64,000 bases of DNA from Myxococcota bacterium (GTDB taxonomy: Bacteria; Myxococcota_A; UBA9160; UBA6930). Position 1 is the first letter of the stretch. Each line of letters begins with the position of its first letter. Shown here one piece after another: positions 44,711 through 64,000 of the stretch. The notes under the pieces were generated by a model. It was not told the DNA's origin, ran no database searches, and saw nothing but the letters and a program-made list of their open reading frames with translations. The translations under genes and the position numbers were made by a program. Where the stretch lies: the NCBI GenBank assembly GCA_965223705.1, contig OZ245015.1:832001-896000 (forward strand), in the 5' to 3' direction.

Positions 44711-44711
44711 C

Positions 44712-45892: not shown

Positions 45893-45894
45893 GC

Positions 45895-46713
45895 CTAGTC
45901 GGTGAGCTGTGCGCGCAGCGCATCATCGACGTCCGTGAGCTCGAGCCGGTAGTGGCGCCGAAGGCTCCGCGGAACCTGTCGGCTCCGGAGACAATCCGCG
46001 AGAAACGCGGCGAAGCGACGTTCTCCGAACCGGCGCATCAAGTGGTCCACCGCCGCGTAGGACGTCAAGTAAGCGGCTCCGGCACCACCTGCACCCAGGC
46101 TGGAGAAGGACTGCGCGCCGAGCTGGTGGAGACTCGGGAGCCGCCCCGCTCTTGCGACTCGGGCGAGATAGCTCCACTCGGCGCCCGACAAACCGCGCTT
46201 GCCGAGGGACCGATGAGCGAACCATTCGGCCAGACCCTCGTTCAACCAGCCTGGGACCGAGAAGGAAGCAGGCGCGGCTTGGTCCAATGCAGCGTGGACG
46301 AACTCATGATGGAGCACGTGGAGCAGGGCAGCGTCGATGCGCGTACCGCCCCGGACGCAAATCACCCCCCGAAAAAAACCAGCCGCCTGAAAGCGGAAGA
46401 GGCTCGAGAACTCGGCGTCGAAACGTTGTGGATCGTATACGTACACCGAGATCGGGCGTTGGGGTCGGACGCCAAACCGTGCGCCGAAGGCATCGTAGGC
46501 CGACTCCAGACCGTCGAGCACGCCGAGCTCGAATCGTCGGGTGCCGCGGTGGCCGGAATAGTTGTCGATCGCGACGTCTTGACGCAAGACGAAGTGACGC
46601 GATCTCCGCTCGGAAAACTCCCCGTCGGCGCCTCGGTTGCGAGCTTCCGCGGGGAGCGCCAGAGTGAGAAGCGCGAGCAGGACGGCTAGTCGGGTAGGCG
46701 CACCCCGTCTGAT
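45895..46713 (-). CDS. Exported clan MA-like zinc metallopeptidase (start uncertain, possibly ATC 46713)
   Basis: HEFVH and WLNEGLAE gluzincin motifs; signal peptide RRGAPTRLAVLLALLTLALPAEA. Confidence 0.8.
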   Translation of the reverse strand: MRRGAPTRLAVLLALLTLALPAEARNRGADGEFSERRSRHFVLRQDVAIDNYSGHRGTRRFELGVLDGLESAYDAFGARFGVRPQRPISVYVYDPQRFDAEFSSLFRFQAAGFFRGVICVRGGTRIDAALLHVLHHEFVHAALDQAAPASFSVPGWLNEGLAEWFAHRSLGKRGLSGAEWSYLARVARAGRLPSLHQLGAQSFSSLGAGGAGAAYLTSYAAVDHLMRRFGERRFAAFLADCLRSRQVPRSLRRHYRLELTDVDDALRAQLTD

Positions 46714-49379
46714 GGGTCGCCTCCTCCGGCTCCCGGGGTCGCGGCCGAGGAGACGCCGGACAGGGCTCCTGTCACGAAGTTCAGCCCGCTGATGTCGCTG
46801 CTCCCGACGACGATGTCGGAAGCGAGTCCCTGAGTCGGATAAGCGCCACACGCTTCGCCAGGGTCGCAAATGAAACTGTCGTTGTCCGCATCGGTTCCGG
46901 CCACGATCTGGTAGGAGCCTGGAGCGACACCCGTGAACGTAAAGGGGTAGGCGCCCGCGTTCGCCGACATGGACTGGACCGCCACGACTCGACGGGTCGC
47001 GACTTCGATCAGGAGGACGTAGTGGAAGCCGGCATCTCCCGCGGAGGAGAGCGTACTCCCAACCTGCATGATGACGGGGATCTCGACCGTGTTTGCGGCG
47101 ACGCTTGCAATCGTGATGGTACCGGTGTAGATGCCGTCGCCAGCAGCGAGGTTCCGGTCGACGGTCACGGTGTAGGTCCCCAGTCCAGTGGCGTCGACGC
47201 TTTGTGGGGTCACGGCCAGCCAGTTGCCGCCGTCGTCGGTCATCGTTGCCGTTGAAGCGATCTGGAGACTGCCGCCGCCACCGTTGCTCACGGCGAGGTT
47301 CGTGGTGGTCGTGGCCACGCCGAAGTTGAGGGCCCCGGGACTTGCGACCAAGCTCGGTTGGGCCACCGGAGGCGGCGCGCCCGGATCGAGGTTGGCCGCC
47401 GCTACGACCGCTTGGTAGGCGTCGATCACACCGTGGCCGAAGAAGTCGTCGCGTCCGGGGACACCGAAGTCGCGCGTGATGCCTCCCGACGTCAACAAGG
47501 TGTCGAAGTCATCCGGAGAGACCATTGGATTGACGGAGCGCATCAGCGCAGCGACGCCCGCGACGTGAGGTGCCGCCATCGAGGTGCCCTGAAGAAACCC
47601 ATACCCCGCGACGATCGGCCCCCCGGCGTCGCTCGCCAGGGACGACAGCACGCCGTCCGGTGCGCCGTCCCCATTCAGGTCCGTAGCGAAGTCGCCGCCG
47701 GGGGCCGAAACGTCGATGGTCCCACCGTAGTTCGAGTAGGGCGCCACGGAGTTCGCCAAGGTCACGGCGCTGACGCTCACGACGCCCGCCATCGCGGCGG
47801 GGTAGAAGGGAGTGTTCGTCGAAGAGTTCCCGGCTGCAGCGATGACAATCACGCCCGCGGCACGCGCCGCCGTGACGGCGTCTTGCAGGCCTTGGGAGAA
47901 GCCCGGCCCGCCGAGACTCATGTTGATGACGTCCGCGGGCGTCGGCGGGACCGTCCCCGAATCGTTCGGGAGGCCGGCTGCGTACCGGATCCCTTGGATC
48001 AAGTCGTAGTCGGTCCCGCCACCGAAGCCCAGAACCCGGATCGGCATCACGGAAGCGTTCCAAGCGACACCCGCTACACCTTCGTTGTTGCCGGTCTGCG
48101 CGGCGATGGTTCCGGCGACGTGTGTGCCGTGGAAGGAGCTGCCGCCGGGCCCGAGGTCACCGGGATCTTCGGGGTCGGGGTCGATACCGTTTCCGTCGAG
48201 GGCGGTGGCCGCGCTCGAGATGAAGTCATAACCCGGAGCGATCATGTTCATGAGGTCCGGATGGTTCGACACGATTCCCGTGTCGAGGACCGCGACGATG
48301 ACGCCGCTCGCGGGCGGAATCTCGTCCCAGGCCTGGGGGACCGCGATTTGCGGGTAGTGCCACTGGCGATCGAAGAGGGGATCGTTCGGGGTGAGACTCG
48401 GTGCTCGGATGTAGTTCAAGTCCGTTGCCATCACGTCGGGCCGCCGGGCGAGAATCTTCGCCAACCGCTCCGTATCCCAAGCGGCCTGTACCTCGGTCTC
48501 CACTTCGCGGGAATCGAGGTCACAGGGAATGAGGTGGCCCATTCCGAGCGCTCTGAAGCTCTGGGTGCGCGCACGCACGTCGCCGGCTCGCACCAACATC
48601 TCGCGTCGCGGTTCGCCCGCGGCGACATCGAGGGACGCCGCCTGCATATCGTCCTGGACGTCGTCACTGCGGAGCGCGATGCCGGGTTCACGGCGCATCC
48701 GTACGATGACTTCGCCCGGTACGTAGAGGGGCGAAGGAGCGGCCACGCTGCTCGAAGTTGCTTGCGACAACACCAGGGTGTAGTTCGAAGCGCCGGCGAG
48801 CGCGGTAACGGCGATCAGATATTCGTCGGCGGCGGGGACGACCAAGGATTCGAACGGCGTCGCCGACGCCGAAAACGCGACGATCGTCGTTCCCGTCGCG
48901 TCGTAAAGAGCGAGATCGAGATCGTCCGTCACGCCGTCCCCGGCGATGAACAACGACACCATCTGATTCGCACCGAGCGAAACCCGGTAGAGATCCTGTG
49001 GATCTCCCGCACCGAAGGAACGGCCCGGAGGCCCCATATTGGGCAAGTTCACGTAACCCGTGAGAGAAGCCGGGTTCGTGATCTCTTGCGCTGTCGCCGC
49101 CGTGTTGTTGTCGTCCGAGGGCGCCGTGAAGTTATTCGTATCGCGGTCGGCAGCCGAACTCTGAGAAGCGACGACCGTCCCGGAAACCGAGAAGGACGCT
49201 GAGGCGGAGGTGGCGCTCGCCGCTTCGCCACCTCCGCCCGAGCCTCCTCCGCCACCGCCCCCACAGGCGACTAGGAGGAGAACCGCAAGCAAGCATCCGA
49301 GGATCCGGGTGCCGGCCGCCACGCGAGCCGGAGAAGTCCGGTTCGTACCGACCGCACCCTTCGAAATCACCACGCGCAC
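46686..49379 (-). CDS. S8 subtilisin-like serine protease lipoprotein with PPC-like and C-terminal Ig/BACON-like domains
   Basis: LVAC lipobox with Gly tether; catalytic VLDTG, HGTHVAG, AAAGN, GTSMA. Confidence 0.92.
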   Translation of the reverse strand: MRVVISKGAVGTNRTSPARVAAGTRILGCLLAVLLLVACGGGGGGGSGGGGEAASATSASASFSVSGTVVASQSSAADRDTNNFTAPSDDNNTAATAQEITNPASLTGYVNLPNMGPPGRSFGAGDPQDLYRVSLGANQMVSLFIAGDGVTDDLDLALYDATGTTIVAFSASATPFESLVVPAADEYLIAVTALAGASNYTLVLSQATSSSVAAPSPLYVPGEVIVRMRREPGIALRSDDVQDDMQAASLDVAAGEPRREMLVRAGDVRARTQSFRALGMGHLIPCDLDSREVETEVQAAWDTERLAKILARRPDVMATDLNYIRAPSLTPNDPLFDRQWHYPQIAVPQAWDEIPPASGVIVAVLDTGIVSNHPDLMNMIAPGYDFISSAATALDGNGIDPDPEDPGDLGPGGSSFHGTHVAGTIAAQTGNNEGVAGVAWNASVMPIRVLGFGGGTDYDLIQGIRYAAGLPNDSGTVPPTPADVINMSLGGPGFSQGLQDAVTAARAAGVIVIAAAGNSSTNTPFYPAAMAGVVSVSAVTLANSVAPYSNYGGTIDVSAPGGDFATDLNGDGAPDGVLSSLASDAGGPIVAGYGFLQGTSMAAPHVAGVAALMRSVNPMVSPDDFDTLLTSGGITRDFGVPGRDDFFGHGVIDAYQAVVAAANLDPGAPPPVAQPSLVASPGALNFGVATTTTNLAVSNGGGGSLQIASTATMTDDGGNWLAVTPQSVDATGLGTYTVTVDRNLAAGDGIYTGTITIASVAANTVEIPVIMQVGSTLSSAGDAGFHYVLLIEVATRRVVAVQSMSANAGAYPFTFTGVAPGSYQIVAGTDADNDSFICDPGEACGAYPTQGLASDIVVGSSDISGLNFVTGALSGVSSAATPGAGGGDPSDGVRLPD

Positions 49380-49385
49380 GGGTTC

Positions 49386-50891
49386 CTAGACGGTGTTCCG
49401 AATCGGGGCGAACGAGATCAGACTGTCCAAATTCGCGCCGAGTCCGTGGGTGGGAAACAGCGTCGCGAACTCGCCCGTCCGATTCTGAAGCGCCAAGTAG
49501 TTCAGAACAATCGTCTCAGCCAAAAGGTCGACGTTGTTGGACGCCGGGGTTGCGCCGGTTTCGACGGACCCGTTCATTCGGTAGTGGCCAATCTGCTGCT
49601 GACCGGGAGCCGTTAGCTGCGGCCGACCCGCCGGGTCGTGAACGAAGAAGAACACGCCCGACGTTCCGGCGTTGTCGCCGCGCCAGGTGAACTTGCCTCG
49701 ACCCGCCTGACTGTTGTCGACCTCACCGTCTGAGAACACGGAACCGTCGGTGAAGACGTAGAGCATCAACTGCTGATTCAGGCGCGCCGCGTACTCGAGC
49801 ACGGCGCCCATCGCTTGACCGGCCTCGAAGTCGCGGATTTCGCCGGTCGCCCGGGTTCCGTTGTGGTAGTCGTAACCGCCGAATTGAATTGTACCCGCGC
49901 CAGCAAAGTCGCCGACCACGAGCTTCATCACCGAGGCTGTGCTCTCGAACTTGTTGTTATTGAGCTCAGCAGCAGTGAAGATGCTGTTGGCATCCCCGAC
50001 GATATTGAGATCCGCTAGCGGGTCGAGCAACGTCGGATTGCCGAAATTCGCGACCACGTCGGTCGTCTCGGTGTAGTTGCAGCCGATCAGATCGAGCAAC
50101 ATCTGCTCTTCCGTCATTTTCGACGTCTTCAGCGCCGAGATGGCTTCCGCCGCGCCCATCACGGCAGCCGCGTCGGCTTGGTCGAGCAGCTCGATCAGCT
50201 TCCCGGTGTCGACCAGCGCCGTCGCGTCGCTCGGACGATCGACTTTCGTCGGCCGCACCGCAGGATCGATCATCGACATCGGCGCACGGGAGCGCCCGCC
50301 GGATTCGCTGTTTTCCGTTCCGATCAAGGGAACGAGGCTGCCTCCCGCGCCGGCTCGATTGATGCCGTACATCGGGTTGTGCGGGTTGTTTCCCGTGTCG
50401 TTGTCCGATCTCGCGGCGATCAACGCGCCGTTCGTGTTGGCCAGCGTCGCCGGACTCGCCTTGTCCATGATGCCCAACAAGAACGGGCTATCGATGTGGA
50501 ACGGTAGTCCCAACGTTGTGCTGTCGATCTGGCCCGCGAGGTTCGGAGTTTGATCCGGTGGGAGACCCTGCAGCTGGTAACCGTCGACGCTCAGGAAATC
50601 CGTGGCACCTCCCATGCCGCCGCCGATGACGTTGGAGCCGACCATGTTGGCCCCACCACCGAGGTCGAAGCAGATGAACGGGATGTTGCCGTTGCCCACG
50701 CCGGACACGTTGCACTGAGCCGCCTGCGCCCGCGCCGCACGACCCTTGAAAAGGCCCAACAGGGAAGGCGAGGCGATCATGGCGGCACCCGACAGGAAGC
50801 CTTGCCCGAGAAATTCCCGGCGCGTTCGGGGCTTCGGATGATTTTCCAGCCGCAGGGGCGCGTTCGAATCGAGAAGCGGTTTTTTCGTCAT
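49386..50891 (-). CDS. Tat-exported protein of unknown function, DUF1501-like
   Basis: TRREFL twin-arginine signal ending ARA-Q; ICFDLGGGAN and GGYDYH resemble DUF1501 motifs (similarity by eye). Confidence 0.75.
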   Translation of the reverse strand: MTKKPLLDSNAPLRLENHPKPRTRREFLGQGFLSGAAMIASPSLLGLFKGRAARAQAAQCNVSGVGNGNIPFICFDLGGGANMVGSNVIGGGMGGATDFLSVDGYQLQGLPPDQTPNLAGQIDSTTLGLPFHIDSPFLLGIMDKASPATLANTNGALIAARSDNDTGNNPHNPMYGINRAGAGGSLVPLIGTENSESGGRSRAPMSMIDPAVRPTKVDRPSDATALVDTGKLIELLDQADAAAVMGAAEAISALKTSKMTEEQMLLDLIGCNYTETTDVVANFGNPTLLDPLADLNIVGDANSIFTAAELNNNKFESTASVMKLVVGDFAGAGTIQFGGYDYHNGTRATGEIRDFEAGQAMGAVLEYAARLNQQLMLYVFTDGSVFSDGEVDNSQAGRGKFTWRGDNAGTSGVFFFVHDPAGRPQLTAPGQQQIGHYRMNGSVETGATPASNNVDLLAETIVLNYLALQNRTGEFATLFPTHGLGANLDSLISFAPIRNTV

Positions 50892-50911
50892 GTTGAGTCC
50901 CCTTACTCCAG

Positions 50912-53071
50912 CTAGTGGACGCTCACAGCAGCGCTCGAGAGCACGGCTGAGCAGGCGGCCTTGACCACGGTTTCGGTACGTTCGGCGTCACACACTTCGG
51001 TCTGGCAGATGGCTGTGAGATCATCGATCAACGTGTTGATGATCGGTGAGACCTCGGCCATCGTCGGCTGGTTCGCGACGTTCGTCCCGATCATTCCATT
51101 TACCAGGGACGTCACGATGATGTTCCGCCCGTTGGCGTCAAACGCCGTCGCCGGAGCTTGATCGAACTGGAAGTTCGGAAAGAGAGCGTCCCGAATCGCT
51201 GGGGTTTCCACAGCGAGCTCGCAGTATTCGAGCGAGAGTTTCGCAATGGACACCTGGTGCGCCGCCGCGAATGATCGCAGATCAAACGAGACCGGTAGCG
51301 CCTGAGTCAGTTCCTCGAACGTGTTCGCGATGGCGGGGGTTGTCGCGTCGACACCGGTGAGTGCCGACATCGTGTCGTTGACGCGAGCGAAGTCGCGCAC
51401 ACCTTCGTTCGGGAAGACCTGGATCTCACCGACGAGCACCGGGGTCGGTCCGGTCGGGCTGTTGTCCGGATCGGGATCGGTGTAGTCGCCCAACGTCTCG
51501 AAATCGAGAGTAAAGACGTCCGTATCCAGGTCGACCATCTGGATGATCGAGCAAGTCGATGAAATCGTCTGACCTGACGACGTCACGGTGGCGTCGAGCG
51601 TTTGGAATGCCTGTCCGGAGACCGGGATAGTCCCATTGACGGCAATTTGCAGGTTCTGCACGCGGAGCCCCGGCGTGCTGGTCACGACCTTCGGGTCACA
51701 GAACAAATAACTGAACTCATCCAGCTGCTCGACGCGGAACTCGAGGTAGCTTCCCGCGCTGGCGTAGGAGCTGATGTCAAACCGCAAGACGAGCTTCTTG
51801 CCGACCCCTGCTGTGTAGTTCTGCGCAATCTGCGCGTCGGTCAGCGCGTATTTGTATACCGCGAGAAGTTGAATGCGCCCCATCCACTGGCGGTCGACAT
51901 TCGTCTCATCTCCGATGACAAACTGATAGTTCGGGTCCCAATTCCAAAGACGTCCGACTTCCTCGGCGAGGTCCGAGTCACCGGTGAATACGCCGTCGAC
52001 GTAGATTCGTCGCCCACGGTATTGGTCGTAAGTGAGAACGATGTGCTGAAGCGTCGCTTGGAGGTCTTCTTCAGCATCGGGCGTCTCGAGCGCGGGGCTC
52101 CCGTTGTCGTCGATCGCATTCGACAGGTTTCGGTTCCGATACACGATGTTGTAGTTGTTTTGGCCGAGCATGAAGTTTCGCAGCTGCGGCCCGTTCGAAT
52201 ACGTCACGATACGCGCGGGTCCCGTCTGATCCACATTGTCGGGGATTACCCAAGCTTCAACGGTGAACTGCTGGGTGCCGTTGGTCGGATCCGCGATGTG
52301 GTCGTAGAGTTTGCGGCTCGTGGTAGGCGTCGCCGCGGCCCGTCCGTCCATGATGTTGAGGCCCCAGTTGGTCATCCACGTCACGCCGTCGACGGGAGCG
52401 TCAATCATCAGATCCATCGCCGGGGCGACGTTCGAGACGTCTCGAACGACGGTCGACCCCTCGCCTTCCTTGAACGTGTAGTAGGCGATGGCGTTCTCCA
52501 TATAACGGAGGTTTCCCGAATCCTCGGTTCCGTCGTCGAGCGTCAGAGAGTTGCTCGTAATGCCATTGACTTGCGTTCCACCGGAGCCGAACTGGATCAG
52601 ACTCGCCCAGGCCTCGATCGCGGCCTGCATCGTGGCGCCGTCAGTGATGCAGTCGCTCCAGCAGTAGTGGAGATCCGCAACCAGACGCCGTACGAGGCGC
52701 GACGCTCCGGGGTCCGAAAAGTTGACTTTCTGATTGTCGACGACCGCGTTGAAGCCCGTCGTCATGTCGGGGTGCGCGATGTGCGGCGTGCCGGGTCCCG
52801 CGCCCGCGTGACAGGTCGTGCAGTTGGTCGTGAGAAGCGGCTGAACCGTCGAGCCGAACGCTTGGATCTGCTCGGCGAGGGAGACGCCGGCGCTTCCAGA
52901 CCCCGGCGTCGAGTTCAACGAACCCGACACAGAGGAACCCGCGACGCCTCCGTCGCCACCGCCGCCCGAGCTACCGCAGGCGGCGGCCAGCCCACCGACG
53001 GCGGCTAGGCCAACGAGTAGCGGGATACGAGAAGCGAGTCTACGCAATCGATCTGCGAGAGAAATGGTCAT
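50912..53071 (-). CDS. Lipoprotein with a c-type heme domain, a LamG/ConA-like domain and a helical C-terminal domain
   Basis: AAAC lipobox, CTTCH, LamG hallmarks FTVEAWV.P, HIVLTYD, IYVDG, IGDE; GGAG SD before ATG 53071. Confidence 0.82.
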   Translation of the reverse strand: MTISLADRLRRLASRIPLLVGLAAVGGLAAACGSSGGGGDGGVAGSSVSGSLNSTPGSGSAGVSLAEQIQAFGSTVQPLLTTNCTTCHAGAGPGTPHIAHPDMTTGFNAVVDNQKVNFSDPGASRLVRRLVADLHYCWSDCITDGATMQAAIEAWASLIQFGSGGTQVNGITSNSLTLDDGTEDSGNLRYMENAIAYYTFKEGEGSTVVRDVSNVAPAMDLMIDAPVDGVTWMTNWGLNIMDGRAAATPTTSRKLYDHIADPTNGTQQFTVEAWVIPDNVDQTGPARIVTYSNGPQLRNFMLGQNNYNIVYRNRNLSNAIDDNGSPALETPDAEEDLQATLQHIVLTYDQYRGRRIYVDGVFTGDSDLAEEVGRLWNWDPNYQFVIGDETNVDRQWMGRIQLLAVYKYALTDAQIAQNYTAGVGKKLVLRFDISSYASAGSYLEFRVEQLDEFSYLFCDPKVVTSTPGLRVQNLQIAVNGTIPVSGQAFQTLDATVTSSGQTISSTCSIIQMVDLDTDVFTLDFETLGDYTDPDPDNSPTGPTPVLVGEIQVFPNEGVRDFARVNDTMSALTGVDATTPAIANTFEELTQALPVSFDLRSFAAAHQVSIAKLSLEYCELAVETPAIRDALFPNFQFDQAPATAFDANGRNIIVTSLVNGMIGTNVANQPTMAEVSPIINTLIDDLTAICQTEVCDAERTETVVKAACSAVLSSAAVSVH

Positions 53072-53123
53072 GGTTCTTCTCCGAGCGGGGGGACGCATGA
53101 ACGAAGTGGCGAGTGGAGCCTGA

Positions 53124-54317
53124 CTAGTTGCCCATGCAGTAGGTTGCGGTCTCGGCGAAGACCCGTTTCATGCTGTAGGCGTTCTGTTCGAACACGTCCG
53201 CGATTCGGTTGACCTCAGTGATCTCGTCGGAGGTCTGAGGCTCCCGGAAGCACACCTGCTCGAACACCTTCTGAACCTGACACAGGGAAAATGCGCGACT
53301 CGAAGCGATCTCCACGCCCAGGCTCTTTGCGCCGAAGCCCGAAGGCTCGGGCCCACGCCAACCGAGGATCGCGTTGGGTCCCTCACGCCAGCGGTTTTCC
53401 CATCGGTTGTCCTGCGTCACGTAACCCGGAGGGAACGCGTTCGCGTTGATGAGGTGCTTCGGTTGAACCATGCCGCGCGTGTGGATGACGCGTTGCAGAT
53501 CCGCGTCCCACTCAAAATACGCGAAGGCGCCCGCCAAGGGGTCCATCCCGCTGTGGCAACCGCTGCACTGGTTGTGAAACAGCTGGCTGTCCCCGCCGGG
53601 GCTCCGACTGACGTCTTGGCGGATCCAATCCACGGATCGCGTGATGTCCTTGAGCTCTTCGAGGTCGCGGCACAAGTAATTGACTGCAATGAAGCGCAAC
53701 ATGCGCCGGTTCGTGCCGGCACTGAAGAACGCTTCCCCCGCGCCGCGCGTCGTGATGACACCGGCCGTCTCCGAACTCATCAGCTGGCTTCCGGGAAGAC
53801 TCGATTGCGCCACCGGGACGAGCATCGCCGGGTCGCCGAGGTCGACGCGCTGATCCTCGAGCTGTCGGTAGTGCAGGTTGTCCGTATGGGAGTAGGGCGC
53901 GTTGACGACACCGGGTGCTCCGACGTAGACGACGTCTGCCGACAGCACGTCCGTGAAAGGCACATCGTCACGGATGAGGCCGATCACTGTCGCCGTGTAG
54001 TCCGTGAGCTCGCCGAAGACCGAGCGCTCTTCGTTTGTCCAAGGCGTCACAAAATTCTTCAGTGCGCCGCGGTAGAAGTCCGGGTCGCTCATCGCGATAT
54101 CCGCGGCTTGGAGAGGCTGGTTCGTGATAAGGCCTGCCATCGCCGTGAGCGTCGCCTCGCTCGGCGGAGTTCCCACCAAACGGTCGTGCATTTTCTTCGC
54201 TTGCTCGCGCGGCCCGGCGAACGAAGCTGTCGCGAGGCCAGCGAACGCCACCATCGCCACAATCCAAGGTTTGGATCGATGGATCATCTTGAAGTTACCC
54301 ACGCCTAGGCCTCCCAT
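53124..54317 (-). CDS. Exported protein with a CxxCH motif, DUF1588/DUF1585-like
   Basis: Signal peptide ending SFA; CSGCHSGMDPL. Start is ATG 54317, GTG 54302 or ATG 54287; the ORF-track start 54638 looks non-coding. Confidence 0.78.
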   Translation of the reverse strand: MGGLGVGNFKMIHRSKPWIVAMVAFAGLATASFAGPREQAKKMHDRLVGTPPSEATLTAMAGLITNQPLQAADIAMSDPDFYRGALKNFVTPWTNEERSVFGELTDYTATVIGLIRDDVPFTDVLSADVVYVGAPGVVNAPYSHTDNLHYRQLEDQRVDLGDPAMLVPVAQSSLPGSQLMSSETAGVITTRGAGEAFFSAGTNRRMLRFIAVNYLCRDLEELKDITRSVDWIRQDVSRSPGGDSQLFHNQCSGCHSGMDPLAGAFAYFEWDADLQRVIHTRGMVQPKHLINANAFPPGYVTQDNRWENRWREGPNAILGWRGPEPSGFGAKSLGVEIASSRAFSLCQVQKVFEQVCFREPQTSDEITEVNRIADVFEQNAYSMKRVFAETATYCMGN

Positions 54318-54411
54318 GATCTGACCTCTTGTCAGAGGAGTCGCTTTCCCAACGCGGCGGACACAGGAGACAACATCGGACGCGCTGTTTTCGCCGCGCG
54401 TGGCAGCGCTC

Positions 54412-54484
54412 ACCGCAGTTCCACAGCAAACGACCGCAGTTCGTAGGACGGGCGCACCGCAAGGAACGGCAATCCGTAGGACGG
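54412..54484. repeat. Short direct repeats in the divergent promoter region
   Basis: ACCGCAGTTC at 54412 and 54433; CGTAGGACGG at 54442 and 54475. Confidence 0.6.
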
Positions 54485-54680
54485 TGTTCCGCATGCGTCG
54501 ACACCACGTGCGGAGTTGACTCGAGAAATCCCGCATTGCGTCCGGGGCAAACCTTGTCGCAGGCACATATCCCACGGGGTCGAAGACGGAGAACTTCTTC
54601 CGAACAGCTAGGGAAGCCGGAACCGCCCCTCTTCGCATACGCGTGTGCGGAGCGGTGTTCCTATATAGGGAAGGCTTCTC

Positions 54681-56909
54681 ATGCCGAAGCGATGGTTGGC
54701 ATTCTTCCTTCTGATAGGCGCTTTCAGCGTATTGCTAGCGAGCCCCTCACAGAGTGGTGAAACCGCGAGCCTCCACGAGGGAGCGGTTCACGAAGGACAG
54801 CCGACCGTCCGCGCGCAGCTCGTTGTGCATCCCGACGACGATTCCGGCCATCGGATCGGTGTCCTGTTCGACATCGCTCCGGGCTGGCACATTTACTGGA
54901 AGAATCCAGGTGAGTCGGGCCTCGCAACCGAAGTGGATTTCACCGTCGCAGGGGCGACGGTCGCGCCGCTCCTCTGGCCGACCCCGGAGCGGTTCGCAGA
55001 CGCCGGCACGAACTTCGATACGTATGGCTACACGGGGAGCGTGCTGCTCCACAGCGTGGCACTTCCCGAAGATGCGGGCTTCGTCCCGACGACCGTGGCG
55101 GCGGAAGTCGCTCTCGTTTCGTGTAAGGACGCCTGTATTCCCGATCAGTTCACCTTGAGTGGTGACGTCACGACTCTACGGGCAGCGGACCCGGACGCCG
55201 TTCGCGGCGTCTTTGCACGCGCGAGCTCTTCGCTGCCTCTCGCCCCGAAAGTCGCCGGCGTGCGCGTCGAGCCTTGGATGTCCCGCGACGGGGTTCGCCC
55301 GAGCGAACGCGTCGATCTCGGTTGGGCGATCTATCCGATGGACCCGTCGGAGGCTCTCGACGCCCAACTCGACGCGGTCGGATTCTTTCCGGAGAAAGTG
55401 TCGGGGCTAAAGCTCGAAGAGATCCGAGTCGCGCCTCATCCGGCCTCGTCGGGAGCCCTGTGGGTTTCGGCGAAGATGCTGGCCTCCACGAAGCCGCTCA
55501 CCGAGATGCAGCTCCTTCGCGGCGTTCTAAAGCTCGATGAGAAACGCTCTATCGCGGTCGAGTTGCCCGTCTCACGAGTCGGCCCGGAGGTCGCGACGAG
55601 CGCATTGGCGTCGCCCTGGACGACGAGCGCGAATCCCGAAAGCGGCGGTGCGTCGTGGGTGTGGATGCTGCTTTTCGCTTTCGTCGGTGGATTGGTCTTG
55701 AACCTCATGCCCTGCGTCTTGCCCATCCTCGCGCTGAAATCGTTCGCGGTCATGGAGATCGCCCAGGCGCGCCGCGGCGAAGCGTTGCGCCAGGGAGCCG
55801 CCTACACCGCGGGGATCCTCGGCTCCATGTTGCTACTCGCGTTCGCCGTCGTCGCGCTGCGACAAGCGGGGACCGCCGTCGGCTGGGGCTTCCAACTGCA
55901 GGAACCCGTGTTTCTCCTCACCGTGAGCGCGTTGTTGTTGCTCTTCGCCTTGAATCTCTTCGGCGTGTTCGAAGTCGGTTCCCCTTCGGCGCTGGCGAGT
56001 GTCGGTGCCGAAAAGAGCGGGGCGACACGGAGCTTTTTCGAGGGGTTCCTGGCCGTCGCTCTCGCGACGCCCTGTTCGGCCCCGTTCCTCGGGACCGCCG
56101 TCGGCTTCGCGTTCACCACCGGAAACGCGGCGACGATATCTGTGTTCCTGTGCGTCGGTTTGGGACTGGCCGCGCCGTTCATGGCGATTTCCGCGCTGCC
56201 GAACCTGTCCCGCCTGCTCCCGAAGCCCGGCCCATGGATGGTCCACCTTCGGACGTTCCTCGGATTCTGCCTGCTCGGTTCGGTGGTGTGGTTGTTGTGG
56301 GTTCTCGGCCAGGTGACAGCGGTCGATGCAGCACCGCAAGCGCTCGTCTGGTTGCTGCTGTTGTCCGTCTGCGCCTGGTTCTACGGACTCGGTCAAAAGG
56401 CCGATACCGGTCGGATGCGACCCGCCTTGATTGCGTTGGCGATCGGAGCCTTTGTCGCCGGCCCCGGCTTGATTCGCGCAGAACGGAGTGATCCCAGCGA
56501 GGCCAGGGTGCACGCATCCTCCGACGAAGCGCGCGATGTCGCCTACACACCCGAACGGCTAGCGGAGGGGCTCGCATCGGGTCGTCCGGTGTTCGTCTAC
56601 TTTACGGCGGACTGGTGCGTGACGTGCAAGGTGAACGAGCGGCGCGTTCTTTCGACAGATCGGGTGCGCGCCGCCTTCGCAGAAGGTGACTACCGCGTTC
56701 TGCGGGCCGACATGACGCGGCGTGATCCCGAACTGGTCGCGACGCTCGCTCGCTACGGTCGGGCTGGCGTGCCGCTCTATCTCCTGTTCCGGCCCGAAAG
56801 CCGCGATGAGCCGACGATTCTTCCCGAGCTCCTCCGCCAAGACGATGTCTTGGCGGAGTTGCGCGCAACTCGCGTCACAACTGCTTCCGACGTGCCGACC
56901 CGACTCTAG
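54681..56909 (+). CDS. dsbD: DsbD-family protein-disulfide reductase
   Basis: GWHIYWKNPG and SCKDACIP (N-domain), LMPCVLP and TPCSAP (TM Cys pair), TADWCVTC (thioredoxin domain). Confidence 0.92.
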   Translation: MPKRWLAFFLLIGAFSVLLASPSQSGETASLHEGAVHEGQPTVRAQLVVHPDDDSGHRIGVLFDIAPGWHIYWKNPGESGLATEVDFTVAGATVAPLLWPTPERFADAGTNFDTYGYTGSVLLHSVALPEDAGFVPTTVAAEVALVSCKDACIPDQFTLSGDVTTLRAADPDAVRGVFARASSSLPLAPKVAGVRVEPWMSRDGVRPSERVDLGWAIYPMDPSEALDAQLDAVGFFPEKVSGLKLEEIRVAPHPASSGALWVSAKMLASTKPLTEMQLLRGVLKLDEKRSIAVELPVSRVGPEVATSALASPWTTSANPESGGASWVWMLLFAFVGGLVLNLMPCVLPILALKSFAVMEIAQARRGEALRQGAAYTAGILGSMLLLAFAVVALRQAGTAVGWGFQLQEPVFLLTVSALLLLFALNLFGVFEVGSPSALASVGAEKSGATRSFFEGFLAVALATPCSAPFLGTAVGFAFTTGNAATISVFLCVGLGLAAPFMAISALPNLSRLLPKPGPWMVHLRTFLGFCLLGSVVWLLWVLGQVTAVDAAPQALVWLLLLSVCAWFYGLGQKADTGRMRPALIALAIGAFVAGPGLIRAERSDPSEARVHASSDEARDVAYTPERLAEGLASGRPVFVYFTADWCVTCKVNERRVLSTDRVRAAFAEGDYRVLRADMTRRDPELVATLARYGRAGVPLYLLFRPESRDEPTILPELLRQDDVLAELRATRVTTASDVPTRL

Positions 56910-57013
56910 TTCGGGGGGATTGGCCCGCAACGAGTCGTCGATCCGTGAGCGCGATCACGCGCTCTCCGCGCGCCCGATCGATACATCAAACACCCTGTAG
57001 TTCGGAGCGTTTC

Positions 57014-57616
57014 ATGACACCCGGATCCCGCCGCGCCCTCGTGCGCTCGTTCGTGTTCTGTTCGACGATGGCTTTCTTCCTCTCCGTGAGTGGCGGTTCA
57101 TTCGCCATAGATCGAGGTCGGCCGGCGCCGAAGTTCACCGGCCCGTCACTCGACGGGAGCGGAAAGCTCTCGCTCAAGCAATATCAAGGACGGGTCGTCT
57201 ACGTCGATTTCTGGGCGTCCTGGTGTCCTCCCTGCTTGAAGTCCCTGCCCGTGCTCGATGAATTCCAGAAGGAGTTCGAGGATCAGGGTTTCCAGGTTCT
57301 CGCGATCAACGTCGACAAAGACGTCGAGGCGGCACGCGAGTTCTTCGCGGAACGCGGCGCGAGCTACCCGAGCTTGTCCGACCCCAAAGGTCGGCTGCCG
57401 CGACAGTTCGGCCTCGAGACCATGCCGACGTCGTATCTCATCGATCGAGAAGGACGCGTGCACTGGATTCACGAGGGCTTCAAGAAGAAAGACGTCGAGA
57501 CGATCCGCACCGAGATCAAGGCGCTTCTCAAGAGCTCGGCTCCGCCCGAGACGTCGACCTATCCCGCCAAGCGGTCGCCGAAATCGGCGCGTCAGTTGAA
57601 GCGGGAGCAGCACTAA
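57014..57616 (+). CDS. TlpA-family thiol-disulfide reductase
   Basis: DFWASWCPPC, MPTSYLIDR.G; N-terminal signal/anchor; GGAG SD before ATG 57014. Confidence 0.92.
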   Translation: MTPGSRRALVRSFVFCSTMAFFLSVSGGSFAIDRGRPAPKFTGPSLDGSGKLSLKQYQGRVVYVDFWASWCPPCLKSLPVLDEFQKEFEDQGFQVLAINVDKDVEAAREFFAERGASYPSLSDPKGRLPRQFGLETMPTSYLIDREGRVHWIHEGFKKKDVETIRTEIKALLKSSAPPETSTYPAKRSPKSARQLKREQH

Positions 57617-57849
57617 TGAAGCGCTTCGCCGTCATGTCTCTTCTCGCGTGTACGACGTTTGCGCTCGCCGCCTGTCAGGCTCCGAAAATCGGAGGCGTCA
57701 AACCCTGGGAGCGCGACATCCTCGCGAAACCCGATATGGCGTGGGATCCCGATCCCCAAGAAGCCGCTCTCCGGTCCCACATCTTCTTCAGCAAAGAGGC
57801 CGCGACCGGCGGCAGCGGTGCGGGTGGGGGCGGATGCGGCTGTAACTAG
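57616..57849 (+). CDS. DUF4266-family small lipoprotein
   Basis: LAAC lipobox, VKPWER..LA, H...SKE, C-terminal GGGCGCN. Confidence 0.88.
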   Translation: MKRFAVMSLLACTTFALAACQAPKIGGVKPWERDILAKPDMAWDPDPQEAALRSHIFFSKEAATGGSGAGGGGCGCN

Positions 57850-57900
57850 TCCGCCGGAAAGCGTCTCGACCCCAAAGCCCTCGCAAGACGGAGCCCCCTC

Positions 57901-59205
57901 ATGAGCCAGGCACGCAGCCTACGTCGATTGGCACTGCGCCGCGATAAGAAACGAAACCGCAAGGGACACTCAGTCCCCAAGCCTCGGAGTTCGGCGCCCG
58001 AAAAGCATCGCCGTTCGTTGGCCGCGCTCACCGCTGGCGCACTCGCACTGCCGGGCCTCGCGGGACCGGCGGGCGCCGACGCACCGTCCGAACGGCCCAG
58101 CGCGAGCTACCGCTTCTCGACGTACCAGGAGGACAAGATCGATTCTTCGAACTTGGCCCCGGGAAGCGAGGACGAGCGCTACGAAATCGATACGCACCAA
58201 TTGCGGTTTTCTTCTCCGCTGAGTTCCAAGATCGATTTCTCACTCGATGTCGTGCACGAAACCATGAGCGGCGCTTCGCCGTGGTTCGTCCAGGAGGGGC
58301 CGAACGGTGAAGCCCTCCAGGTCATGAGCGGTGCGACGATCGACGAAGAGCGAACGGATTTCCTCGGAAAGCTGAACTACTTCCTCGACAACGGTCGCGT
58401 CTCGTTTCTCGGGGGTGTATCCGATGAAAAGGACTACCAATCGCTGAACGGCGGGCTCGAATGGGAACGTCATTTCAACGAAAAGAATACGACGCTGACC
58501 ACCGGTGTCGGTCTTTCGTTCGACGAGATCGAGCCCACGGATGCCGACCTCTTTGCGACGCGCGTTTCCAGCGAGGACAAAGAGAGCTACTCGGCGTTTA
58601 TCACGTTGTCGCAGATCTTGAACCGCCACTCCGCGATTCAGTCGACCCTGTCCTACCAGAACAGCAATGGCTTCTTATCCGACCCGTACAAGCTGATCTC
58701 TGTAGGCGGCGTGAACCTCGCGGATTCGAGGCCCGACGATCGCAACATGCTGGCGTGGTTGACACGCTATCGGCGCCACTTCGAGAAACTCGACGGTTCG
58801 TTCCACGCCGACTATCGGTTCTACATCGACGATTGGGATATCAATTCGCACACCGTCGAGTTGGCCTGGTACCAGAACCTATTTCGAACGATCAAACTCG
58901 TCCCGAACGCGCGCTACTACAGCCAGAGTGAAGCCGACTTCTACGCGCCATTCCTCTCGGTCTTGCCGAGTGACGGCTACGCTTCGAGCGATTATCGGTT
59001 GTCGCCGTACGGCGCGATTTCGTACGGAATCCGCGCCGAAACGACCTTCCGCGGGTTGTTCGGCGGTCGGCAGGATTGGACGGCCATCCTGTCGTTCGAT
59101 CGATACGACGCCGACGCCGACTACTCGATCCAGAGCGTTGGCACGGAAGCGCCGGGACTGGTGCAGTTCAACGTTCTCTCCTTCCGGATCAAGGCCGACT
59201 TCTAG
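57901..59205 (+). CDS. DUF3570-family outer-membrane beta-barrel with flavinylation motifs
   Basis: Y.E start, two MSGA[S/T] motifs, E.DY.S, G.L.DPYK, RPD.R, Y.DDW.I.SHT, SSDYRLS; alternating beta pattern; terminal Phe; typical position after DUF4266. Confidence 0.85.
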   Translation: MSQARSLRRLALRRDKKRNRKGHSVPKPRSSAPEKHRRSLAALTAGALALPGLAGPAGADAPSERPSASYRFSTYQEDKIDSSNLAPGSEDERYEIDTHQLRFSSPLSSKIDFSLDVVHETMSGASPWFVQEGPNGEALQVMSGATIDEERTDFLGKLNYFLDNGRVSFLGGVSDEKDYQSLNGGLEWERHFNEKNTTLTTGVGLSFDEIEPTDADLFATRVSSEDKESYSAFITLSQILNRHSAIQSTLSYQNSNGFLSDPYKLISVGGVNLADSRPDDRNMLAWLTRYRRHFEKLDGSFHADYRFYIDDWDINSHTVELAWYQNLFRTIKLVPNARYYSQSEADFYAPFLSVLPSDGYASSDYRLSPYGAISYGIRAETTFRGLFGGRQDWTAILSFDRYDADADYSIQSVGTEAPGLVQFNVLSFRIKADF

Positions 59206-59206
59206 G

Positions 59207-60157
59207 ATGGAGCCGAGGCGGTATCCCTTTAAGGCGATGGGGAGCCCCTGCGAGCTTCACCTCTACGGGAAGACGGCCGCCGATTGCGATGCCGCAGAAG
59301 CGCTCGCCCGGACCGAAATCGATCGGCTCGAGGCGAAATTCTCCCGGTACCGGGGCGACAGTTTGACGGCGAAGATCAACGCGAGTGCCGGCGATCCCTC
59401 GGGAGTCGAAGTCGACGAAGAAACCGCAACGCTCCTCGACTACGCCGACACGGCTTTTCGCGAGAGCGATGGCGCGTTTGATGTCACCTCGGGAATCCTC
59501 CGCCGGGTATGGGACTTCAAGTCCGGCCGCGTACCCAGTCGCCGAGACGTGAAGGCGCTCCTACCCATGGTCGGCTGGCAGCGCGTTCGCTGGGAACGCC
59601 CCAGACTCGTACTCCCGAAGTCCGGCATGCAGGTCGATTTCGGCGGATACGTCAAGGAATACACGGCGGACCGCGTCGCTGCACTGCTGCGAGAGGCCGG
59701 TGTGGAAAGCGGCCTCGTGGACCTGGGCGGCGATCTGGCCGTCGTCGGACCGCACCCGGACGGGTCGGCTTGGCGTGTAGGCATTCGGGATCCGCGTGCG
59801 AGAGGTCGCGCCATCGCACAAGTCGCACTCGCCGGAGGCGGGTTGGCGAGCAGCGGCGACTACGAGCGCTTCATCGAAATCGACGGAACGCGATACGCCC
59901 ACATACTGGATCCGCGGACCGGCTGGCCGGTGACTTCGCTTGCTGCGGTGTCGGTGGTCGCAGATCATTGCCTCGTCGCAGGCACCGCGAGCACGGTGGC
60001 GATGCTGCTGGGAGAGCGGGGCGGATCGCAGTGGCTTGAGGAGCTCGGTCTCCCTCATGTCCGTGTCGATCAACACGGCGAAGTGCGGGGCTCTCTGGCT
60101 CCATCGGCGCGAGCTCTTACGGCGCTGCGTTCGCCGGCACTTCCGGTTTGGCGATAA
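59207..60157 (+). CDS. apbE: FAD:protein FMN transferase (ApbE family) without an N-terminal signal
   Basis: AMG, S.Y..DS, GAFDVT, DFGG..K, DLGGD, SSGDYER, HILDPRTG.P. ATG 1 nt after the DUF3570 stop. Confidence 0.93.
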   Translation: MEPRRYPFKAMGSPCELHLYGKTAADCDAAEALARTEIDRLEAKFSRYRGDSLTAKINASAGDPSGVEVDEETATLLDYADTAFRESDGAFDVTSGILRRVWDFKSGRVPSRRDVKALLPMVGWQRVRWERPRLVLPKSGMQVDFGGYVKEYTADRVAALLREAGVESGLVDLGGDLAVVGPHPDGSAWRVGIRDPRARGRAIAQVALAGGGLASSGDYERFIEIDGTRYAHILDPRTGWPVTSLAAVSVVADHCLVAGTASTVAMLLGERGGSQWLEELGLPHVRVDQHGEVRGSLAPSARALTALRSPALPVWR

Positions 60158-63026: not shown

Positions 63027-63092
63027 TCGGGGGCGAGGTTACCGGGCTCGACTACGAGGGCCCAGTCTCATCCGTCACAAACGCTCGAGCTT

Positions 63093-63860
63093 TCAGTCCT
63101 TGCCGAAACCGGGAAGCGAAAAGGAGAAGAAACGCACTTCCATGCCGGTCGTGATCTCGCTCGAATCGAGCTCGAGCTCATAGGTGCCAAATGAGGTCGG
63201 CCCGTTCAGCAAGTCGACTTCGAGATCGCCGAGATCGACCTTCCGGTAGCCCAGGGACCAAGTGACGTTGCGCGTCAGGTCGTAGCTCAGACCGACGCCC
63301 CAGTGAGTTGCAGATTCCGAGGTGCTGTCGCTTCCGGACGAGATGTTGTCCGTCGTCTGGATGTCGATGTCCGCCCAGCCGATGCCCCCACCACCGTAGA
63401 GACGCAACGGCTCGAGCACCGGGACGCGGCCGAAAATCCACGACACGGGTTCGTGTACGGGCACCTCGAGCCAGACACTCGGCATGATCGTGTCCGCTTC
63501 CACTTCGGTAAAGAAGCCGTCGCCGCCAGCGGTCCGGAACTCGTAGTCGCGGCCCCACGTGCCTTCGAGCTCGAGCCGCACGCGCCAGCTCGGGACCGGG
63601 ACGCGATCGATCTTGGTCAGCGCCTCTTCAAGCGTGAACGCGAGGCCGACCGCGCCGCCGTACGCGGGAGATTGGTCGTCGTCATCTCCGGTGAGCGGGA
63701 AAAACGTGGTCTGCCCCGAGGACGAGCCTTCGCCGTCCGAGACAAAGACGTTGCCTTTGCCGTACAGGTCCACCGAATAGGTCGGGCTCGATGCGAAGAC
63801 CAGCAGGCCGAACATCAAGACGACGGGAACAAGCGGCAAGTTCAAATGGGGGCGCGCCAT
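63093..63860 (-). CDS. Small outer-membrane beta-barrel protein (OmpA/Opa-like)
   Basis: Signal peptide, AVG, R.ELE, LYGGGGIG, GVGLSY, LGYR..DLG; GAGGAG SD. Confidence 0.82.
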   Translation of the reverse strand: MARPHLNLPLVPVVLMFGLLVFASSPTYSVDLYGKGNVFVSDGEGSSSGQTTFFPLTGDDDDQSPAYGGAVGLAFTLEEALTKIDRVPVPSWRVRLELEGTWGRDYEFRTAGGDGFFTEVEADTIMPSVWLEVPVHEPVSWIFGRVPVLEPLRLYGGGGIGWADIDIQTTDNISSGSDSTSESATHWGVGLSYDLTRNVTWSLGYRKVDLGDLEVDLLNGPTSFGTYELELDSSEITTGMEVRFFSFSLPGFGKD

Positions 63861-63970
63861 GGCTTCTCCTCAAACGGCCGATCGGGACCGGCAACGGTTC
63901 GGCAGCTCGGGACTCCCGACAGGAGGTCGCGCGCTGCATAGAGCACATCGTTCTGTGACTTCGAACCCCG

Positions 63971-63986
63971 TGTGACGAAACTCACG
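63971..63986. promoter_or_regulatory. CRP/FNR-family-like site upstream of the OMP/secretin genes
   Basis: TGTGA-cgaaac-TCACG, 9/10 to TGTGA-N6-TCACA, about 110 bp upstream of ATG 63860. Confidence 0.35.
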
Positions 63987-64000
63987 CGCCGAATCGTGAC

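Follow-up and report, generated by a model that had tools for sequence, protein, structure and literature searches.

Clusters that combine DsbD, a TlpA-type thioredoxin, DUF4266, DUF3570 and the FMN transferase ApbE have been published as the 'DsbD system' (PMC8238504). DsbD sends out reducing equivalents, and FMN on DUF3570 has been shown for the Chlorobium luteolum homologue only. DsbD itself is optional, being present in 227 DUF3570 clusters and missing from 316, and 25 DsbD-type clusters were noted with the VIT1 iron transporter. That study names no electron acceptor; LamG, DUF1501 and a barrel go unmentioned in its main text, and its supplementary table may list such neighbours (PMC8238504). 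Two further modules bear on the locus described here. PSCyt/PSD cytochromes and Tat-exported DUF1501/DUF1552 proteins form modules in PVC bacteria, in many copies per genome (PMC3542564, PMC5615132), and the Agl/Glt 'core complex' of Gammaproteobacteria has no assigned function in the passages that describe it, which mention neither a cytochrome nor a thioredoxin (PMC3169522, PMC3858216).

Layout of the locus and its flavin arm

We analysed a 64,000-nucleotide stretch of DNA (the window) from a Myxococcota bacterium. A sequence-only reading of it had described two divergent arms, whose ten open reading frames are real and positioned as it described. The features, with their conserved neighbours, are as follows.

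45895..46713, minus strand: MA-type metallopeptidase (HEFVH), a class-wide gene, passenger
46686..49379, minus strand: S8 subtilase lipoprotein with catalytic motifs present, passenger
49386..50891, minus strand: gene C, Tat-exported, predicted alkaline-phosphatase/sulfatase fold, DUF1501-like
50912..53098, minus strand: gene B, lipoprotein of 728 aa with an N-terminal CxxCH domain, a lectin-like LamG domain and a helical tail
53124..54317, minus strand: gene A, exported single-CxxCH protein of 397 aa, homologue of the PSD4-PSCyt3-PSD2 core
54318..54680, no strand: inter-arm gap of 363 bp, presumed promoters (from layout)
54681..56909, plus strand: DsbD, three domains (DsbD_N, DsbD_TM, Thioredoxin_7 in Pfam), optional locus member
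57014..57616, plus strand: TlpA/ResA-type exported thioredoxin, WCPPC (Redoxin, E 6e-27)
57616..57849, plus strand: DUF4266, small, exported, probable lipoprotein ending in CGCN (E 3e-24)
57901..59205, plus strand: DUF3570, predicted outer-membrane barrel (E 4e-72)
59207..60157, plus strand: ApbE FMN transferase without signal peptide (E 4e-78)
60117..63026, minus strand: secretin with AMIN and weak SPOR domains (Pfam), conserved neighbour
63093..63860, minus strand: small outer-membrane beta-barrel (OMP_b-brl, E 4e-12), conserved neighbour

The divergent arrangement is retained in relatives. The earlier reading's shared promoter region of about 360 bp stands as layout, but no sigma-70-type promoter was found between the arms (1 site in the whole scan against 2.3 expected by chance) and no Rfam RNA matched within 45000-64000, the inter-arm gap included, so that 'one promoter region' describes the arrangement of the genes. 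The terminator scan gave 17 sites against 14.2 expected by chance. Gaps of about 50 nt or less, as had been claimed, separate most genes (S8-Tat 6, Tat-LamG 20, LamG-CxxCH 25, TlpA-DUF4266 -1, DUF4266-DUF3570 51 and DUF3570-ApbE 1 nt), the exception being the 104 nt between DsbD and TlpA. ApbE is an exception to the statement that nearly every product carries an export signal. On the right the boundary had been drawn too narrowly, leaving out the secretin, the small barrel and a motor block beyond the window edge.

Pfam matches above cut-off were obtained for DsbD, redoxin, DUF4266, DUF3570, ApbE, Peptidase_S8 and Laminin_G_3, and the five DsbD-type components are contiguous. The right arm thus contains every listed component of the published cluster, with both [S/T]GA[S/T] motifs; it differs in its linkage to the trio of genes A, B and C and in the signal-less ApbE (PMC8238504). 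Both the right arm and the electron path that the earlier reading proposed for it are already in print (PMC8238504); the function is absent from print, and the earlier reading's statement that no function has been demonstrated for such clusters holds.

DsbD has cysteine pairs at 148/152, 345/465 and 646/649 and occurs in 18 of 21 host-type loci and none of 36 gammaproteobacterial ones. TlpA scores best against ResA/DsbE-type models, CxxC motifs are present in its relatives, and the C-terminal CxC of DUF4266 is the CGC of its CGCN end. Alternating hydrophobic strands and a C-terminal Phe suggest that DUF3570 is an outer-membrane barrel; a PDB sequence search with it gave no credible match. Its ApbE motifs, SGAS at 123 and SGAT at 143, lie in one long loop and would each carry an FMN; both are kept in 20 of 21 host-type relatives, the remaining one (L013) having a single motif. 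Most trio-linked gammaproteobacterial DUF3570s have DxxSSAS or DxxTTAS in place of [ST]GA[ST], so their flavinylation is putative. A Tat route for DUF3570 was ruled out, since the Arg-rich N-termini share no twin-arginine motif.

The window's ApbE has no signal peptide, lipobox or hydrophobic N-terminal stretch. By a crude hydropathy test, which left 3 further rows unscored, such a stretch is absent from all 15 scored host-type ApbEs and from all 13 scored other DUF3570-linked ApbEs, and present in 7 of the 10 trio-linked ApbEs scored from Gammaproteobacteria. The genome encodes another ApbE, which belongs to an Nqr-like operon and does have a hydrophobic N-terminal stretch. If an ApbE that lacks a signal peptide acts on an outer-membrane protein, flavin would have to be attached before export.

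The trio of exported proteins

Gene A carries a CSGCH motif at residues 251-255, a putative haem site. Of 130 distant relatives, 129 keep CxxCH; GTNR at 201-204 is invariant, and four extra cysteines are 90-95% conserved. The protein itself has no Pfam match at E 0.05; within its family, 56 of 92 members match PSD2 and 45 of 92 match PSCyt3 (E up to 1), with the matches to PSCyt3/PSD models (DUF1588/DUF1585/DUF1592) mostly under cut-off. In hhalign comparisons it reached 99.2% over 294 columns against canonical PSCyt proteins and 96.9% against L148, which makes it a homologue of these planctomycete-type cytochromes across their PSD4-PSCyt3-PSD2 core, CxxCH included. Fold searches gave a best Z of 4.9 and nothing under E 0.001, which does not demonstrate a new fold, and neither a PDB sequence search (no credible match) nor a search of a plasmid collection (no match) found a relative. 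The family comprises more than 7,000 sequence clusters and is present in 39 of the 300 Gammaproteobacteria sampled, which makes this a common system.

Canonical PSCyt proteins are single multidomain chains that start with a haem domain and end in a tail, whereas here the haem domain and a weakly similar tail sit in gene B. Its CTTCH motif spans residues 93-97, C93, C96 and H97 being kept in 70 of 70 relatives; H144, C146, C150 and the lipobox C41 are kept in 69 of 70, and H144 is a candidate distal haem ligand. Laminin_G_3 matches at E 9e-19. The tail aligns weakly with the canonical PSCyt tail (E 0.083), and a Pfam scan of 65 gene B tails found no consistent family. Together, A and B resemble a single PSCyt-type cytochrome that has been divided between two genes and has gained a LamG binding domain. 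A predicted complex of A, the B tail and the Tat protein came too close to a control to count either way.

Gene C has a twin-arginine motif in 75 of 76 relatives. Its predicted model (pLDDT 91) matched ENPP6 (VIA Z 11.5, rmsd 3.9, 217 aligned) and a sulfatase (Foldseek, E 1.3e-4). Nearly all of the 50 VIA matches listed belong to the alkaline phosphatase/sulfatase/NPP superfamily, with EptA/EptC, MCR-1, LtaS and BcsG among the fold matches, and we predict that the core alpha/beta fold is of this superfamily. Identity in the structural alignments is 7-13%, with about half of the chain aligned. D76, T166, D341, H343, D382 and D406 are invariant in 98 of 98 sequences; judged by motif order and not by coordinates, D76, D341, H343 and D382 would be candidate metal ligands and T166 a candidate nucleophile, a further likeness to the superfamily. 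PDB sequence searches with gene C and its profile gave no credible match, and gene C has no Pfam match at E 0.05. Its relatives bear the database label 'general secretion pathway protein GspF', a misannotation; gene C was rejected as a type II secretion GspF, a protein with polytopic inner-membrane T2SSF domains, because it lacks a Pfam match and its model is soluble and phosphatase-like.

Several features recall the PSCyt/DUF1501 modules, namely the CxxCH homologue of PSCyt3/PSD2, the optional Laminin_G_3 and the adjacent Tat protein with GGxDxH (PMC3542564, PMC5615132). Gene C has the Tat signal and the GGxDxH and GxGK..W motifs, and DUF1501 is found in 45% of the members of its Atlas neighbour cluster (score 0.92). 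Unlike in those modules, however, the cytochrome is split into two genes, tied to a flavinylation arm and present in single copy in this genome. None of the gene C members scanned reaches the DUF1501 model (PF07394): the window's protein gave no match, nor did 8 relatives at E up to 5, and a profile comparison was weak (E 0.014, probability 3%). Gene C has lost the His of the GKDHW motif of DUF1501, so its metal site differs.

Linkage across genomes

Among 80 genomes of the host class, 30 carry both gene A and DUF3570, 2 gene A only, 3 DUF3570 only and 45 neither; in 28 of the 30 double carriers the two lie on one contig within 5.2 kb. For 300 gammaproteobacterial genomes the counts are 38 with both, 1 with A only and 34 with DUF3570 only, and A lies within 12 kb of DUF3570 in 25 of 40 A genomes. 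The sampled genomes are related, so these counts overstate independence. The whole trio is present in 69 of 70 loci. Of the 60 loci for which 6.5 kb of DNA upstream was available, 50 contain DUF3570. A quick tree of DUF3570 shows that two clades, deeply apart (supports 98 and 100), are both linked to the trio. The co-occurrence and proximity of the CxxCH, LamG and Tat families with the DUF3570 cluster, which the earlier reading had predicted, are thus borne out in two phyla. We found no paper that describes the coupling of flavin arm and trio; a JDVT-CTERM link, in section 14 of bioRxiv 2023.06.07.544157, concerns other neighbours.

Partners are also exchanged. The 34 of 72 gammaproteobacterial DUF3570 genomes without gene A indicate that the trio is not the only partner of the flavin arm. 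Among 20 further DUF3570 loci are 3 in which canonical unsplit PSCyt3/PSD4 and DUF1501 share one operon with TlpA-DUF4266-DUF3570, with ApbE beside it, and a fourth has a RoxA-like dihaem protein nearby. Conversely, cytochromes with 5-21 haems replace the flavin arm beside the trio in 8 of 97 scanned loci, several with a TPR/barrel-like protein and some with an Fe-S flavoprotein; G062 and G122, class genomes with A and no DUF3570 match, are of this type. In 5 of 60 loci neither DUF3570 nor a multihaem protein neighbours the trio, and in three genomes (G329, G457, G472) the trio lies 41-202 kb from DUF3570.

The two proteases, which the earlier reading had made parts of the system, are passengers outside the conserved unit. 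A tblastn search of 94 trio loci found no MA gene and one unrelated S8, so that neither protease stands beside any of these trios. Full-length S8 orthologues occur in 9 of 80 class genomes, 8 of them of one genus, and none on gene A's contig; MA orthologues occur in 64 of 80, 38 of these without gene A, and come no nearer to A than 32 kb. It had been proposed that electrons open a disulfide-rich or metal-bound substrate which the proteases then cut. In favour, only 6 nt separate S8 from the Tat gene ahead of it on that strand, so that the two may share a transcript in this genome, and 8 of the 9 S8 genomes carry gene A; given the surveys above, the proposal is largely refuted as a general feature, and we regard it as highly improbable. 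In GC3 the proteases do not differ from the core genes (0.72-0.81), and their composition thus does not suggest that they were inserted recently. Peptidase_MA_2 falls just below the Pfam cut-off (31.8 against 32.4 bits). The MA gene has no ATG, GTG or TTG beside its signal peptide, a TTG at 46869 overlapping S8; read by hand, an in-frame ATC at 46713 fits better as its start.

Fetched flanks contain the secretin in 13 of 21 host-type loci and the small barrel in 7. Just beyond the window edge, at genome positions 896003-901092, lies an ExbB/ExbD/TonB-like block of ExbD-like, proline-rich, TPR-like, lipoprotein and ExbB-like genes, whose only match is a weak one to MotA_ExbB (E 0.001). The TPR gene of this block occurs in 29 of 32 A genomes, within 16 kb in 21; G062, G102 and G122 have gene A and no match to it. 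Gammaproteobacterial loci run TPR-TPR-TPR-ExbB-ExbD-ExbD-AgmX/PglI genes together with an OMP_myx_plus barrel, and in 8 of the 11 genomes fetched the adjoining genes include ExbB/ExbD homologues and one with a TonB-like C-terminal domain; in the one locus scanned, the AgmX/PglI tail was above its cut-off and the rest below equivalog cut-offs. These loci resemble the Agl/Glt core complex in its described passages, with TPR, ExbB-, ExbD- and GltG-like genes in a row (PMC3169522, PMC3858216), whereas the host class has another block, without Glt matches.

Proposed electron feed and its alternatives

The conserved unit consists of the trio and TlpA-DUF4266-DUF3570-ApbE, with or without DsbD. We propose, tentatively and as the best reading, that a thiol-to-flavin-to-haem electron feed serves a periplasmic enzyme complex, the flavin arm quite possibly supplying the trio haems. 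Electrons would pass from cytoplasmic thioredoxin via DsbD, TlpA and the CGC of DUF4266 to the DUF3570 barrel with its two FMN. There the flavin would receive electrons in pairs from thiol chemistry and release them one by one to c-type haems. Together with the phosphatase-fold metalloenzyme exported by Tat, the putative haem proteins A and B might then attack an anionic glycan or envelope polymer, either sulfated or phosphorylated, and the adjacent ExbB/ExbD/TonB-like block could move the substrate or gate the barrel. We favour this feed because of the A-DUF3570 linkage counts and the two DUF3570 clades involved, because PSCyt3/PSD4 and DUF1501 share operons with the flavin arm and multihaem neighbours replace it elsewhere, and because DsbD exports reducing equivalents and one DUF3570 homologue is flavinylated (PMC8238504). 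The co-occurrence of the motor-block TPR gene with A also counts in favour; the many gammaproteobacterial DUF3570 genomes without A, the trios without or far from DUF3570, the variant motifs of most trio-linked gammaproteobacterial DUF3570s and the missing GKDHW His of gene C count against.

DsbD or CcdA passing electrons to ResA is the established route for haem ligation. DsbD and TlpA could accordingly act in maturation only, keeping CxxCH reduced for haem attachment and sorting left-arm disulfides, with the flavin barrel separate. The preference of TlpA for ResA/DsbE-type models and the conserved extra cysteines of A and B are consistent with such a role. Yet TlpA remains with DUF4266-DUF3570 in loci without the trio, DsbD is missing from 36 of 36 gammaproteobacterial loci, and the multihaem replacement and the link to DUF3570 itself would be left unexplained; we think this unlikely.

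The usual rule for barrels places long loops outward. The FMN loop of DUF3570 would then face away from the periplasmic haems, which counts against the electron feed and suits reductive metal uptake, in which outer-loop FMN reduces a chelated metal such as iron, import is powered by the ExbB/ExbD/TonB-like block and the ligand is stripped off or stored by the trio. VIT1 in 25 DsbD-type clusters (PMC8238504) and the TonB-like domain adjoining ExbB/ExbD point the same way. No metal transporter was seen, however, among the annotated recurrent neighbour families of 93 loci, smaller clusters being scanned in part, and from LamG and the phosphatase fold one would rather expect an organic ester or a glycan. 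We regard metal uptake as doubtful.

Resemblance of the gammaproteobacterial motor genes and OMP_myx_plus to the core complex as described in part (PMC3169522, PMC3858216) suggests, alternatively, that the locus assists an Agl/Glt-type motor in moving and modifying a surface polymer made by the cell itself, gene C being a transferase (cf. EptA, LtaS, BcsG, among its fold matches). Such a role in envelope biogenesis or surface transport is, in our estimate, rather improbable: the host class has the different motor block, gene A stands without a motor TPR match in three genomes, and the recurrent neighbours included no recognisable glycosyltransferase cluster.

Beyond the electron feed, a wider scheme can be drawn, which we consider speculative and unlikely to hold as a whole. 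PSCyt/DUF1501 modules, first described in planctomycetes, would be reductant-dependent periplasmic enzyme complexes. DUF3570 would be a flavin-lined outer-membrane barrel that receives its FMN in the cytoplasm, ahead of export, and serves as a haem-free counterpart of a porin-multihaem conduit. Both would plug into interchangeable proton-driven motors, and the resulting machine would span the envelope and attack anionic glycans by redox chemistry. The pairing ties together three modules that had been listed separately and without assigned function, the DUF3570 flavinylation clusters, PSCyt/DUF1501 and the Agl/Glt core motor. As the pairing recurs, each module gains a partner that can be tested in Gammaproteobacteria available in culture (Catenovulum, Lentisalinibacter), Catenovulum sediminis being a cultured carrier.

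Layout of the locus and its flavin arm

All ten ORFs claimed by the sequence-only reading were found at the places it had assigned to them, spaced -1 to 104 nt apart within the two divergent arms and 363 nt apart between them:

45895-46713 (-), MA-type metallopeptidase
46686-49379 (-), S8 protease
49386-50891 (-), gene C, Tat-exported protein
50912-53098 (-), gene B, CxxCH-LamG lipoprotein
53124-54317 (-), gene A, exported CxxCH protein
54681-60157 (+), flavin arm

Pfam identifies the flavin arm as DsbD, redoxin (TlpA), DUF4266, DUF3570 and ApbE, and also recognizes the S8 protease and the LamG domain; the MA peptidase falls just under the cut-off, and the scan gave no match for genes A and C. 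Genes A, B and C (the trio), DUF3570 and DsbD each occur once in the 4.56-Mb genome, and the nearest named relatives are Myxococcota MAGs.

The right arm is an already published cluster type. PMC8238504 reports ApbE-DUF3570-thioredoxin-DUF4266 clusters, some of which include DsbD. It demonstrates flavinylation of a Chlorobium DUF3570 at two motifs and proposes DsbD as the feeder of a system whose function it leaves open; the accessible part of bioRxiv 2024.03.13.584918 makes no mention of DsbD. Both flavinylation motifs are present in the window's DUF3570, where both sit on one long loop that joins two strands, themselves bordered by short turns. Together with alternating hydrophobic strands and a C-terminal Phe, this sequence pattern suggests a putative barrel whose FMN loop would face outward. 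In the accompanying ApbE, 9 residues precede the first conserved motif and a hydrophobic stretch is lacking, as is the case for 15/15 scored host-type and 13/13 scored other DUF3570-linked ApbEs; the stretch is present in 7/10 scored gammaproteobacterial trio-linked ApbEs. Cytosolic ApbEs are known, with soluble targets, according to PMC12052999. We infer that DUF3570, as a putative outer-membrane protein, may be flavin-loaded ahead of export. Elsewhere in the genome (contig C1, 4409639-4416588), an Nqr-like operon encodes a separate, membrane-anchored ApbE and has two DxxSGAT motifs.

Linkage of the trio to DUF3570

Genes A, B and C go together with the flavin arm. Among 80 genomes of the host class, 30 carry both gene A and a window-type DUF3570, 2 gene A only, 3 DUF3570 only and 45 neither, and in 28 of the 30 double carriers the two lie on one contig, at most 5.2 kb apart. 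The corresponding counts for 300 gammaproteobacterial genomes, with the centre genome left out and one DUF3570-only genome (G242) being unpublished, are 38, 1, 34 and 227; DUF3570 lies within 12 kb of gene A in 25 of 40 gammaproteobacterial A genomes (centre genome included). The neighbourhood survey bears out, in two phyla, the proposed co-occurrence of families A, B and C with DUF3570 clusters. Since the sampled relatives are not independent, P values for co-occurrence were given no weight. Gene organization was compared across 88 distinct loci, drawn from 13 loci of the class and the 80 top matches (of 581) of a scan covering 19/64 parts, after removal of 5 duplicates: the order A-B-C is kept in 69/70 loci with room, and DUF3570 is upstream of the trio in 50/60. 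Against linkage, gene A is missing from roughly half of the gammaproteobacterial genomes with DUF3570, and three genomes have the trio at a distance of 41-202 kb from DUF3570.

In one locus (L014, G142:C27), a complete DUF3570 arm has beside it only a remnant of the Tat gene, which suggests loss of the trio there. L016, L017, L166 and L167 lack the trio and carry another type of DUF3570, about 900-1,000 aa long and accompanied by TlpA and DUF4266.

Trio families and swaps among their neighbours

Gene A keeps CxxCH in 129/130 distant relatives, along with an invariant GTNR and four further cysteines. Its members match PSD2 (56/92) and PSCyt3 (45/92), mostly under cut-off, and its profile aligns (99.2%) to the middle part of canonical 760-aa PSCyt proteins, which adjoin true DUF1501 genes. 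Gene B combines an invariant CxxCH with a LamG domain, and its tail aligns weakly (E 0.083) to the canonical segment after the A-like part. We read A and B as one putative PSCyt protein, split and rearranged, the tail link being weak. In two loci (L008 and L041), protein B reaches 1,700-1,800 aa with Ig/cadherin repeats. Gene C has a twin-arginine signal in 75/76 members, and its predicted model (pLDDT 91) finds its matches in the alkaline phosphatase/sulfatase superfamily (Z 11.5; E 1.3e-4 in a second search), with D76, T166, D341, H343, D382 and D406 invariant. It did not match the DUF1501 model and has motifs alone in common with that family. A carnosine-N-methyltransferase-like gene follows the Tat gene in 16/88 loci (e.g. 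L039:15056-16432). PSCyt and DUF1501 modules, some with Laminin_G_3, are described in PMC3542564 and PMC5615132 as being of unknown function, with carbohydrate-linked electron transfer suggested. The trio shares with them CxxCH homology and, in some, Laminin_G_3, but gene C misses the DUF1501 model.

A quick tree (39 selected rows) ties the trio to two DUF3570 clades that are distant from each other. The host-type clade has canonical motifs and DsbD in 18/21 loci; the gammaproteobacterial clade has DxxSSAS/DxxTTAS motifs instead, DsbD in 0/36 and a dihaem hydrazine-synthase-alpha-like lipoprotein in 36/36. Another 20 DUF3570 loci were picked by score; in three of them an unsplit PSCyt3/PSD4 gene and a true DUF1501 lie within the TlpA-DUF4266-DUF3570 operon, and in one more a RoxA-like dihaem protein is nearby:

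L148:3281-10098, PSCyt3/PSD4, DUF1501, TlpA-DUF4266-DUF3570 and a signal-less ApbE
L149:1546-8374, the same
L151:1738-7539, the same, PSCyt3/PSD4 gene broken by a stop
L150:2468-9887, DUF3570 cluster, with the RoxA-like dihaem protein, a PhoX-like Tat protein and a small dihaem lipoprotein alongside

Cytochromes with 5-21 haems adjoin 8/97 trio loci (L007, L008/L139, L041, L044, L046, L055, L063 and L086), several with a TPR protein with a barrel-like C-terminus and some with an Fe-S flavoprotein; no DUF3570 match was obtained in G122, whose one-contig genome belongs to this type. The abstract of PMC8238504 reports flavin/cytochrome interchange in other clusters. By guilt by association, these swaps share one theme: exported c-type haem enzymes with an electron conduit as neighbour.

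It is probable that the trio and flavin arm are functionally coupled. Because the direction of DsbD is established, outward electron flow is the likelier; the specific mechanism, in which the flavin arm would feed electrons to the trio, is a tentative proposal that we hold to be slightly less likely than not.

Boundaries of the locus

The locus as drawn by the sequence-only reading stops short on the right, missing a secretin, a small barrel and a motor-like block:

60117-63026 (-), secretin with AMIN/SPOR domains, in 13/21 host-type loci
63093-63860 (-), small barrel, in 7/21 host-type loci
C1 896003-901092 (L122:4003-9092), just past the window, five genes: ExbD-like, proline-rich, TPR-like, lipoprotein, ExbB-like

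The ExbD-like and TonB-like calls are based on sequence features, with a (weak) Pfam match for ExbB only. Within the host class, the TPR-like gene occurs in 29/32 A genomes versus 7/48 others. In 8/11 gammaproteobacterial genomes examined, a TPR-ExbB-ExbD-ExbD run lies next to the locus or to the DUF3570 half of it, and in 7 of them it comes with a GltG-like gene; the run resembles the Agl/Glt core complex, whose function is given as unknown in PMC3169522 and PMC3858216. Open-licence papers and bioRxiv yielded no report tying DUF3570 clusters to PSCyt/DUF1501 modules or the Agl/Glt core. The locus is a real, widespread and undescribed combination of modules that are each described yet unexplained.

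The S8 and MA proteases, previously counted as members of the system, are passengers. A tblastn search with both domains against 94 loci (duplicates counted; at least 3.5 kb past the Tat gene in 65/82 Tat-bearing loci) found MA nowhere and S8 once, as an unrelated protein of 28% identity. Of the 80 class genomes, 9 have a full-length S8 orthologue; eight of the nine are from one genus, eight also carry gene A, and S8 is on the contig of A in 0/9; trio genes were absent from all four S8 flanks examined. MA orthologues occur in 64/80 class genomes, 38 of them without gene A, and the smallest distance to A is 32-34 kb (five genomes). To the left of the locus (42944-45892, +) lie a PQQ-type dehydrogenase, a small cytochrome c lipoprotein and a short-chain dehydrogenase, a set not seen among the recurrent neighbours. 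None of the common start codons occurs at the signal peptide of the MA gene (46713-46869); ATC at 46713 is a candidate.
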